Shown here: positions 4,545-13,917 of the stretch, piece after piece
How positions within the stretch are numbered: the stretch's first letter is position 1
Layout: every line of letters starts with the position of its first letter
Source: Escherichia coli
GTDB taxonomy: Bacteria > Pseudomonadota > Gammaproteobacteria > Enterobacterales > Enterobacteriaceae
Length of the DNA: 64,000 nucleotides
Assembly: GCF_003334385.1 (NCBI RefSeq)
Contig: NZ_QOWN01000001.1
Strand: one strand, 5' to 3'
Program-made: the position numbers and the translations under genes
The notes under the pieces: model-generated
The model's input: the letters and a program-made list of their open reading frames with translations, nothing else
Told to the model about the DNA's origin: nothing
Databases searched by the model: none

Positions 4545-5234
4545 TTACCCTGCAGCCTGCATAGTAGCCCACCAGTCGGCATCAGCTTCGATCTCGCCTT
4601 GCTGATTGACGTGGGGATAAGGCAGGCCTTTGCGTTTTGCGACTTTCGCCAGCACCGGATAGCCGCCTTCAAACAACAGGCGTTGTTGCTCTGCTTCCGG
4701 CAACATGCTGTTTTCACGCAGGTACATGCCTGCATTTTGCCGCTGACGCTGGGCTTCGTAAAGAATGAGGGCTGAGGCAACGGAAACATTCAGCGACTGC
4801 ACCATGCCGATCATCGGAATGATGATGTCCTGATCCGCCAGGGCCAATGCTTCCTGCGTGATGCCCGTTTTCTCCTGTCCCATCAAAATGCAGGTCGGGC
4901 GAGTGTAATCAATTTCGCGGAAATCGACAGCGTTATCAGAAAGATGGGTTGCCAGAATCTGCATGCCCTGGCCTTTGAGATGAGCGACGGCATCGCCAAT
5001 GGTGCGGTGTGTTTTCACCTGTACCCAGCTGTTACTACCCGCCGCTGCCGAAGCCATGGTGCGCATGCGGCTACCAGGCCAGACGGCGTGAACTTCATGT
5101 ACGCCAACGGCATCTGCGGTACGAATAATCGCAGAAACGTTATGAGGTTTGTGGACCTGCTCCATGCAGACGGTCAGATCAGGCTGCCGCCTGGCGAGCA
5201 TTTCGCAGATGCGTGCATAACGTGTTGGGTTCAT
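4545..5234 (-). CDS. trmH: tRNA (Gm18) 2'-O-methyltransferase TrmH (SpoU)
   Basis: 229-aa ORF recognised as TrmH; lies between spoT and recG in the spo operon. Confidence 0.93.
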   Translation of the reverse strand: MNPTRYARICEMLARRQPDLTVCMEQVHKPHNVSAIIRTADAVGVHEVHAVWPGSRMRTMASAAAGSNSWVQVKTHRTIGDAVAHLKGQGMQILATHLSDNAVDFREIDYTRPTCILMGQEKTGITQEALALADQDIIIPMIGMVQSLNVSVASALILYEAQRQRQNAGMYLRENSMLPEAEQQRLLFEGGYPVLAKVAKRKGLPYPHVNQQGEIEADADWWATMQAAG

Positions 5235-5240
5235 AAAACA

Positions 5241-7349
5241 TTAATTTCGGTTTCGGGTGACTTTAATCACGTCTGGCATCACGCGGATTTTGCGCATGAT
5301 ATTCGCCAGATGCACACGGTCACGAGCGGTCAGACGAATAAAGGCGCTGTAGACGCGACCATCTTTCTCTTCCGTATTCAAACTTTGAATATTCGAAGTC
5401 GTGGTGTTAATTGCCGCCGTCAGGTTTGCCAGCGCACCCTGATGATTGAACATCTCCACCTTGATTTCGGTGATGAACTCCTGCGCCGTCTCTTTATCCC
5501 ATTCCACAGCCATAAACTTCTCTGGCTCTTTCTGGTAGCCACGGATATTACGGCAGGATTCATGGTGGATCACCAGACCTTTACCGGGGCTGACGTGGGC
5601 GATAATCGGGTCGCCAGGAATAGGGCGGCAGCATTTCGCAAAGGTGATCAGCACGCCATCGGCACCTTTAATGGGCAGATGTCCGTGGCTTTGGGTTGCC
5701 GGTGGAATGGAGGCGTCCCCATGTTGCAGATTTTTCGCGACCACCACGCTCATTGCGTTACCAAGTCCGATTTCTGCCAGCAGATCGTCAAGCGTTGCCA
5801 GCTTCATGCGATCCAGCTCGCGCTGAATATTTTCCTGCGGGATTTCATTCAGCTTACGGCTACCACCCAAAGCATGGTTGAGCAGACGACGGCCCAGGCT
5901 TACAGAATCATCACGCTTGAGGTTTTTCAGCAACTGACGAATTTTGGCGCGCGCTTTCGAGCTAACGACAAAGTTCAGCCAAGCGGCATTCGGGCGAGCG
6001 CCCGGAGCGGTAATGATTTCAACGGTTTGACCGCTGGTAAGCGGCTGCGACAGCGGGTAAGGCTGGCGGTCAACGCGTGCGCCCACGCAGGCATGACCGA
6101 TATCGGTATGCACTGCATAAGCGAAGTCGACGGGCGTTGCACCGGCAGGCAGCTCGACAATGCGCCCTTCCGGTGTGAAAACGTAAATCTCATCCGGGAA
6201 GAGATCGGATTTAACGCTCTCGATAAATTCAAACGAACTACCGGCGCTCTGTTGCAGCTCCAGCAGGCTTTGCATCCAGCGCTGGGCGCGGATTTGTGCG
6301 GTAGTACTGGTTTCGCCGTGCTCTTTATAAGCCCAGTGCGCGGCAACACCCATCTCCGCCATCTGGTCCATATCTTCGGTACGGATCTGGACCTCAACCG
6401 GCACACCGTGCGGGCCGATCATCGAGGTGTGCAAAGACTGATAGCCGTTCGCTTTTGGAATGGCGATATAGTCTTTCACGCGGCCCGGACGCGGCTTGTA
6501 CAGGCTGTGCATCTGGCCCAGCACGCGATAACAGGTGTCAGAATCATTGACGATCACGCGGAAAGCGTAGATGTCCATGATCGAGTGAAAACGCTGCTCT
6601 TTGAGCACCATTTTGCAGTAAATCGAATAAAGATGCTTCTCGCGACCACTGACGCGGCACGGTATTCCCGCTTCCTGCAAACGCCCTTCGATTTCAGAAA
6701 GAATCTTCTGGATCATCTCTTTACGGTTGCCGCGCGCGGCTTTCACCACTTCTTTGATTACGCGATAACGGTTGGGATACAGCGCCTCAAAACCCAGCTC
6801 TTCGAGTTCGGTTTTAATGTGGTGGATACCTAAACGGTGCGCCAGCGGGCTATAAATTTCGAGAGTTTCACGGGCGATGCGGCGACGTTTGTCCGGGCGA
6901 AGTGAGCCCAGCGTGCGCATGTTGTGGGTACGGTCGGCAAGTTTGATGAGGATGACGCGGATATCCTGCACCATCGCCATAATCATCTTGCGAAAGTTTT
7001 CGGCCTGCGCCTCTTTCTTATCGCGGAACTTGAGTTTATCAAGTTTCGACACCCCCTCTACCAGCTCGGCGACGCTTTTACCAAAAAGCTGTTCCATATC
7101 CTGGTAGGTGGCGGGAGTATCTTCAATCACGTCATGCAGCAGCGCCGCCATCAGCGTTTCATAGTCGAGTTTCATCTCGGCCAGAATGCAGGCAACCGCT
7201 ACCGGGTGCGTGATATAGGGTTCACCGCTTGAACGTGTTTGCCCCTCGTGAGCATCACGTGCAACGAGATACGCCTGCCGCAGACGCTTGATTTGGTCTT
7301 CCGGCAGGTAGGTTTGAATCAGTTGATTCAGGCTTTCAAACAGATACAA
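5241..7349 (-). CDS. spoT: Bifunctional (p)ppGpp synthetase II / ppGpp pyrophosphohydrolase SpoT
   Basis: 702-aa ORF beginning MYLFESLNQLIQTY; HD hydrolase and RelA/SpoT synthetase regions; initiator codon is TTG (revcomp of 7347-7349). Confidence 0.96.
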   Translation of the reverse strand: MYLFESLNQLIQTYLPEDQIKRLRQAYLVARDAHEGQTRSSGEPYITHPVAVACILAEMKLDYETLMAALLHDVIEDTPATYQDMEQLFGKSVAELVEGVSKLDKLKFRDKKEAQAENFRKMIMAMVQDIRVILIKLADRTHNMRTLGSLRPDKRRRIARETLEIYSPLAHRLGIHHIKTELEELGFEALYPNRYRVIKEVVKAARGNRKEMIQKILSEIEGRLQEAGIPCRVSGREKHLYSIYCKMVLKEQRFHSIMDIYAFRVIVNDSDTCYRVLGQMHSLYKPRPGRVKDYIAIPKANGYQSLHTSMIGPHGVPVEVQIRTEDMDQMAEMGVAAHWAYKEHGETSTTAQIRAQRWMQSLLELQQSAGSSFEFIESVKSDLFPDEIYVFTPEGRIVELPAGATPVDFAYAVHTDIGHACVGARVDRQPYPLSQPLTSGQTVEIITAPGARPNAAWLNFVVSSKARAKIRQLLKNLKRDDSVSLGRRLLNHALGGSRKLNEIPQENIQRELDRMKLATLDDLLAEIGLGNAMSVVVAKNLQHGDASIPPATQSHGHLPIKGADGVLITFAKCCRPIPGDPIIAHVSPGKGLVIHHESCRNIRGYQKEPEKFMAVEWDKETAQEFITEIKVEMFNHQGALANLTAAINTTTSNIQSLNTEEKDGRVYSAFIRLTARDRVHLANIMRKIRVMPDVIKVTRNRN

Positions 7350-7367
7350 GGGCGACCCGCTTTGTGA

Positions 7368-7643
7368 TTAACGACGACCTTCAGCAATAGCGGTAACGGC
7401 TTGTAATTCAGCGGCTTCCTGCTCTTGCTGTTCCTGGCGTTCGCGAACGTCGAGGATCTGGTTGTTGATCAGACCTTCTTCGATTTCGCGCAGCGCGATT
7501 ACAGTGGTTTTATCGTTTTCTTCCGGTACCAGCGGATCCTTTCCGCCTACCTGCATCTGACGAGCGCGACGCGCGGCGACCAGTACCAGGTCAAAACGGT
7601 TACCAATTTTCTCTACAGCGTCCTGAACAGTTACGCGTGCCAT
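7368..7643 (-). CDS. rpoZ: RNA polymerase omega subunit
   Basis: 91-aa [32 protein letters not shown]... recognised as RpoZ. Confidence 0.95.
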
Positions 7644-7697
7644 ACTTAAAAAGCTCCACAGGTGAAGAAATGACTGGGCATGATACTGAAATCAGGT

Positions 7698-10875
<3,178 letters not shown>

Positions 10876-13200: not shown

Positions 13201-13917
13201 ATGCGTCCAGCAGGCCGTAGCAATAATCAGGTGCGTCCCGTTACCCTGACTCGTAACTATACAAAACATGCAGAAGGCTCGGTGCTGGTCGAATTTGGCG
13301 ATACCAAAGTGTTGTGTACCGCCTCTATTGAAGAAGGCGTGCCGCGCTTCCTGAAAGGTCAGGGCCAGGGCTGGATCACCGCAGAGTACGGCATGCTGCC
13401 ACGTTCTACCCACACCCGTAACGCTCGTGAAGCGGCGAAAGGTAAGCAGGGTGGACGCACAATGGAAATCCAGCGTCTGATCGCCCGTGCTCTTCGCGCG
13501 GCAGTAGATTTGAAAGCGCTGGGTGAGTTCACCATTACGCTGGACTGCGACGTGCTTCAGGCTGATGGTGGCACGCGTACCGCGTCGATTACGGGTGCCT
13601 GCGTGGCGCTGGTAGATGCGCTACAGAAGCTGGTGGAAAACGGCAAGCTGAAAACCAATCCGATGAAAGGGATGGTAGCCGCAGTTTCTGTCGGAATTGT
13701 GAACGGCGAAGCGGTTTGCGATCTGGAATACGTTGAAGACTCTGCCGCAGAGACCGACATGAACGTAGTGATGACCGAAGACGGGCGCATCATTGAAGTG
13801 CAGGGGACGGCAGAAGGCGAGCCGTTCACCCATGAAGAGCTACTCACCTTGTTGGCTCTGGCCCGAGGGGGAATCGAATCCATTGTAGCGACGCAGAAGG
13901 CGGCGCTGGCAAACTGA
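13201..13917 (+). CDS. rph: Ribonuclease PH, full-length (rph+)
   Basis: ORF track frame from 13177; start at ATG 13201 ([20 protein letters not shown]...), 238 aa ending ...[14 protein letters not shown]; stop TGA 13915-13917 immediately before the attenuator hairpin. Confidence 0.93.

Follow-up and report, generated by a model that had tools for sequence, protein, structure and literature searches.

Comparative analysis of the TTG initiation codon of spoT in Escherichia coli and related species

The (p)ppGpp hydrolase SpoT, an enzyme of the stress alarmone, is essential in Escherichia coli. Here, we describe the translation initiation region of spoT in a stretch of 64,000 nucleotides from an E. 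coli contig (NZ_QOWN01000001.1, assembly GCF_003334385.1), referred to throughout as the window, and compare it with the corresponding region of related and more distant species. The plus strand reads CAA at 7347..7349, of which TTG is the reverse complement, so the gene lies on the minus strand; the initiation codon (UUG in the transcript) was identified by direct reading and its first base is position 7349. The spoT coding sequence in the open reading frame listing (5241..7349, minus strand) comprises 702 codons followed by a TAA stop, and its product begins (M)YLFESLNQ. Directly upstream lies rpoZ (7368..7643, minus strand), the gene for RNA polymerase omega, a 91-codon open reading frame that matches the TIGR00690 equivalog, with an ATG start at 7643 and a TAA stop at 7370..7368. 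The spacer between the two genes, TCACAAAGCGGGTCGCCC (7350..7367, minus strand), is 18 nt long, and the T of TTG is the 19th base past the stop; the sequence-only reading had placed the spoT start 19 bp from the rpoZ stop, and counted in this way the distance is correct.

The next gene of the operon is trmH (spoU; 4545..5234, minus strand), placed by the junction sequence and by the MG1655 annotation mapped onto the window, with its ATG 6 nt past the spoT stop. The same mapped annotation places gmk, the first gene of the spo operon, at 7698..8321 (minus strand), upstream of rpoZ. The gene order in the window is thus gmk-rpoZ-spoT-trmH with spoT directly downstream of rpoZ, and rpoZ is likewise upstream in 78 of the 80 species loci compared below. 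[quoted passage not shown] No terminator-like or promoter site was found on the coding strand between rpoZ and spoT, in a search whose overall counts were at chance level. Just upstream of rpoZ and overlapping the gmk stop, a promoter-like TTGGCA-18 nt-TATCAT (7680..7709, minus strand; 10 of 12 matches) is predicted, which might serve as an internal promoter for rpoZ-spoT, such sites occurring at chance level regionally.

Aligned in reverse orientation, the window is 99.956% identical to E. coli K-12 MG1655, differing at 28 positions (24 substitutions and 4 single-base indels) with zero differences in rpoZ, spoT and trmH. A 601-base segment spanning the junction (window 7100..7700) was matched in 5,425 of 5,426 complete E. 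coli genomes. In the MG1655 sequence NC_000913.3, rpoZ occupies 3822106..3822381 and spoT (b3650) occupies 3822400..3824508, with TTG as the first annotated codon; the K-12 gene (NP_418107.1; bifunctional (p)ppGpp synthase/hydrolase) has the same start coordinate, the same TTG, a 702-aa product and the same operon context. The PGAP annotation of an O157:H7 genome starts spoT at the same base. Elsewhere in the window, an extra G at 13871 relative to MG1655 3815879 falls inside rph, annotated in MG1655 as "truncated RNase PH", and rph is probably intact in the source strain, which would lack the rph-1 frameshift of K-12.

The TAA of rpoZ is the first in-frame stop upstream of spoT, as the two genes share one frame in E. 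coli, and from this stop to codon 59 the TTG at 7347..7349 is the sole ATG, GTG or TTG. The next canonical candidates in the spoT frame are ATG at codons 59 and 67, while near-cognate CTG, ATT or ATC triplets occur at codons 3, 7, 10, 11 and further on (CTG at 3, 7 and 10). When read from the TTG, the product aligns over residues 1-702 to positions 1-702 of the SpoT equivalog profile NF008303 in NCBIfam (1542.7 bits, cut-off 947). Pfam places HD_4 at residues 26-175, HD at 45-144, RelA_SpoT at 235-345, TGS at 388-447 and ACT_4 at 622-699, which is the order of HD hydrolase, RelA_SpoT synthetase, TGS and ACT found in long RSH bifunctional enzymes, and alignment to solved RSH structures begins at SpoT residues 6-13. 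There was no spoT or b3650 entry among the rows listed in published N-terminomics supplements, and the absolute-proteome supplements searched gave no match to spoT or rpoZ.

A scan of species-representative genomes yielded 80 loci from Enterobacterales and two Photobacterium species, all from related species picked for their similarity to E. coli. At the position aligned with SpoT residue 1, 79 of these species have TTG, one has GTG (the locus of an endosymbiont, L080) and none has ATG; most of the 80 loci likewise offer no other canonical start from the upstream stop to approximately codon 50. For an outer set, 50%-identity representatives were searched, and the DNA of eight full-length orthologs (55-72% identity over the first 200 residues) was examined; all eight begin at the homologous position, seven with ATG and one with TTG. 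Because the eight distant orthologs share this start position, they independently confirm the N-terminus. Given that no other canonical start is available, that public annotation agrees and that orthologs start at the homologous position, 7349..7347 (minus strand) is very probably the UUG codon at which translation of spoT truly begins, spoT being the third gene in the operon gmk-rpoZ-spoT-trmH-recG. The earlier claims that spoT begins at TTG, and that this is the only in-frame start fitting the SpoT N-terminus, are both borne out by direct reading, the MG1655 and O157:H7 annotations, the NF008303 alignment and the 80 species.

Judged from the sequences sampled, the comparison shows TTG to be a trait of the enterobacterial/Photobacterium clade and not of SpoT generally; since seven of the eight distant orthologs use ATG, a weak start is not an intrinsic feature of SpoT. 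This clade-wide pattern (79 TTG, 1 GTG and 0 ATG, versus 7 ATG and 1 TTG outside) did not appear in the literature searched. A SpoT ortholog of 56% identity on a metagenome contig (L090; SRR7646132_49, start codon at positions 601-603) has TTG behind a strong SD, AAGGAGGGGAT, and its spoT also lies directly after rpoZ; the TTG of this locus may represent an independent occurrence of a non-ATG start.

A change of the first base of the start codon from T to A or G would leave the protein unaltered, and this base is T in 79 of the 80 species. None of the 39 third-codon positions of spoT codons 2-40 is that conserved, the median major-allele frequency of these positions being 0.66 in the 80-species alignment. 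The T, replaceable without protein change, is therefore far more conserved than its neutral neighbours. Because the sampled species share ancestry and were picked for resembling the query, this argument is a descriptive one.

The surroundings of the codon are conserved as well. An SD-like stretch, AAAGCGGGU (7355..7363, minus strand), has its core GGGU at 7358..7355, 5 nt before TTG, and its duplex with the 16S 3' end (-5.3 kcal/mol) ranks 35th among the 63 annotated genes of the region (median -5.8); the spoT SD is at a functional distance, and its strength is weak to average, not strong. Across species, R-G-G-T at -9..-6 and C-C at -2 and -1 are conserved, and in the 78 species with rpoZ upstream the spacer measures 17-30 nt (17-20 nt in 63 of them) without overlap of the two genes. 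The rpoZ start is ATG in 78 of the 78 species where it was found, and spoT retains TTG. The SD of rpoZ itself (GGAGC, within the upstream region 7644..7663, minus strand) stands 9 nt before its ATG, which agrees with the published distant-SD class. Over the first eight spoT codons (codons 2-8 at 7326..7346, minus strand), synonymous positions are more conserved than farther downstream among loci L002-L081, for example AAT at codon 8 in 75 of the 80 species, GAA at codon 5 in 73 and AGC at codon 6 in 71. This pattern in the alignment suggests that selection acts on the entire initiation region, beyond the start codon. As the block from -9 to about +24 is conserved as a whole, the start T may be constrained as part of this larger region, rather than by codon strength alone. 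RNA structure sequestering the start or SD was rejected as a cause of the invariant T, since the single-sequence fold of -51..+40 was no better than shuffles (z = +0.76) and RNAalifold returned 0 pairs for the 65 distinct -30..+24 sequences.

A TTG start is not rare in itself, as it accounts for about 3% of E. coli gene starts and for 3 of the 63 annotated genes of the region (spoT, yibV and yibQ, from the MG1655 annotation mapped onto the window); three further regional genes, yibX, waaJ and yicR, are annotated with GTG. In published reporter assays, UUG and GUG initiate at 10-100% of AUG, and near-cognate codons at about 1-2%. Previous papers name the "TTG start codon" of spoT and place the gene in the polyamine modulon, its synthesis being stimulated because of an inefficient UUG/GUG start, and they describe rpoZ as poorly translated owing to a distant SD (PMC4405209, PMC7177335, PMC4191411). 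Polyamines are reported to enhance UUG/GUG-dependent fMet-tRNA binding, and in the analogous gene gshA basal synthesis rose 3.0-fold, and the stimulation by polyamines disappeared, when UUG was changed to AUG. That the stimulation of spoT is likewise lost on changing UUG to AUG is asserted by later papers of the same group, which cite Terui et al. 2012 (Int J Biochem Cell Biol 44:412) as the primary reference, where the TTG to ATG test of spoT was apparently published. As these later papers present it, the membership of spoT in the modulon rests on published experiments. Like spoT, the modulon genes with inefficient starts, cya, gshA, cra, uvrY and frr, begin with UUG or GUG and have an SD in the normal position.

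An established case of a non-AUG start is infC, which encodes IF3, begins with AUU and is autoregulated, IF3 discriminating against AUU to give feedback. As is proposed for spoT, the non-AUG start of infC sets or regulates the level of a low-abundance regulatory protein; unlike the non-canonical AUU, the UUG of spoT is one of the three canonical starts, and we know of no feedback loop acting on the spoT start, nor is one indicated here.

At its first position, the UUG codon mismatches the CAU anticodon carried by fMet-tRNA. Established initiation biochemistry and the papers cited above lead us to infer that this mispairing would reduce the efficiency of 30S initiation complex formation relative to AUG, and that UUG, an average SD (GGGU, 5 nt upstream) and a C-rich spacer would together result in low translation of spoT from the transcript it shares with rpoZ. 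SpoT synthesis would also respond to conditions that favour UUG-dependent fMet-tRNA binding, for which polyamines are the published example. A weak start that holds SpoT low relative to RpoZ is a plausible, putative and partly published idea, supported indirectly by the reporter strengths of UUG and GUG, by the gshA codon change, by the polyamine literature and by the contrast between ATG in rpoZ and TTG in spoT. The contribution of the codon may be equalled by that of the weak SD, the C-rich spacer and a possible coupling to rpoZ translation. Beyond this, TTG may have long been actively maintained across Enterobacterales and in at least some Vibrionaceae as a throttle holding the ratio of SpoT to omega low on their common mRNA, with ATG in distant lineages, a proposal that we hold to be evenly balanced between true and false.

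Alternatively, the output of SpoT could be set by the translation of rpoZ, with ribosomes that finish rpoZ re-initiating 18 nt downstream so that the identity of the codon matters little. Such coupling fits a spacer that is short and constrained in length (mostly 17-20 nt, with a maximum of 30 nt), an SD that is merely average and the co-transcription of the two genes, but with an unimportant codon the first base should drift between T, A and G, contrary to its near-invariance as T. A conserved and normally spaced SD-like RGGT suggests, moreover, that 30S subunits load independently, and the polyamine literature credits the effect to UUG itself. We consider this explanation unlikely in the form stated, although coupling could coexist with a weak codon. 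Less probable still is that TTG arose in the enterobacterial lineage by neutral historical accident, is tolerated since low SpoT suffices and is not kept for regulation. Both states are evidently viable, as ATG occupies the same position in most of the more distant orthologs, TTG starts are ordinary in E. coli and the sampled species are related; yet synonymous sites around a nearly invariant first base are heavily substituted, the invariance spans genera as distant as Photorhabdus, Proteus, Plesiomonas and Photobacterium, and the only change seen, in an endosymbiont, produced GTG, which is again a weak start, with zero changes to ATG.

The remaining alternative, that the true start lies elsewhere, at Met59, at a near-cognate codon such as the CTG at codon 3, or in rpoZ through an omega-SpoT fusion formed by read-through of its TAA, is extremely improbable. 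With rpoZ and spoT in one frame in E. coli, only six sense codons separate them, and near-cognate CTG occurs at the early codons noted above; a TTG start would give the tryptic N-terminus (f)MYLFESLNQLIQTYLPEDQIK. Met59 was rejected as the start, because it lies inside the HD_4/HD domain, so that starting there would cut away part of the catalytic hydrolase domain, and because the solved RSH structures align from well upstream of it. Near-cognate initiation is inefficient in the reporters, there is no need to invoke it here, and some species have ATT, ATC or TTA as codon 3. The read-through fusion was rejected as well, since the frame offset between rpoZ and spoT varies among the 78 species (0 in 33, 1 in 30 and 2 in 15), which makes the shared frame in E. 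coli incidental, and the spacer contains additional stops in many species. Stop triplets crowd just after the rpoZ stop in many Enterobacterales (TAATTAA, TAATTAG or TAATAA, in L003, L009, L010 and others), and the E. coli sequence at this point is TAATCAC. Against any start other than the TTG, the distant orthologs with ATG have it exactly at position 1.

The TTG start of spoT is standard E. coli reference annotation and already known, and its inefficiency and polyamine responsiveness are published. Reportedly, the unusual start was already assigned in the original characterisation of spoT by Sarubbi and colleagues in 1989. The sole small addition made here is the comparative picture, in which a weak start is near-invariant in the enterobacterial/Photobacterium clade, versus ATG in most of the distant orthologs sampled. 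The dosage of SpoT sets basal alarmone levels and growth rate, so limits on its translation are physiologically relevant. If TTG is indeed maintained as a throttle on SpoT, E. coli with ATG in its place would be expected to have measurably less basal ppGpp and lower fitness.
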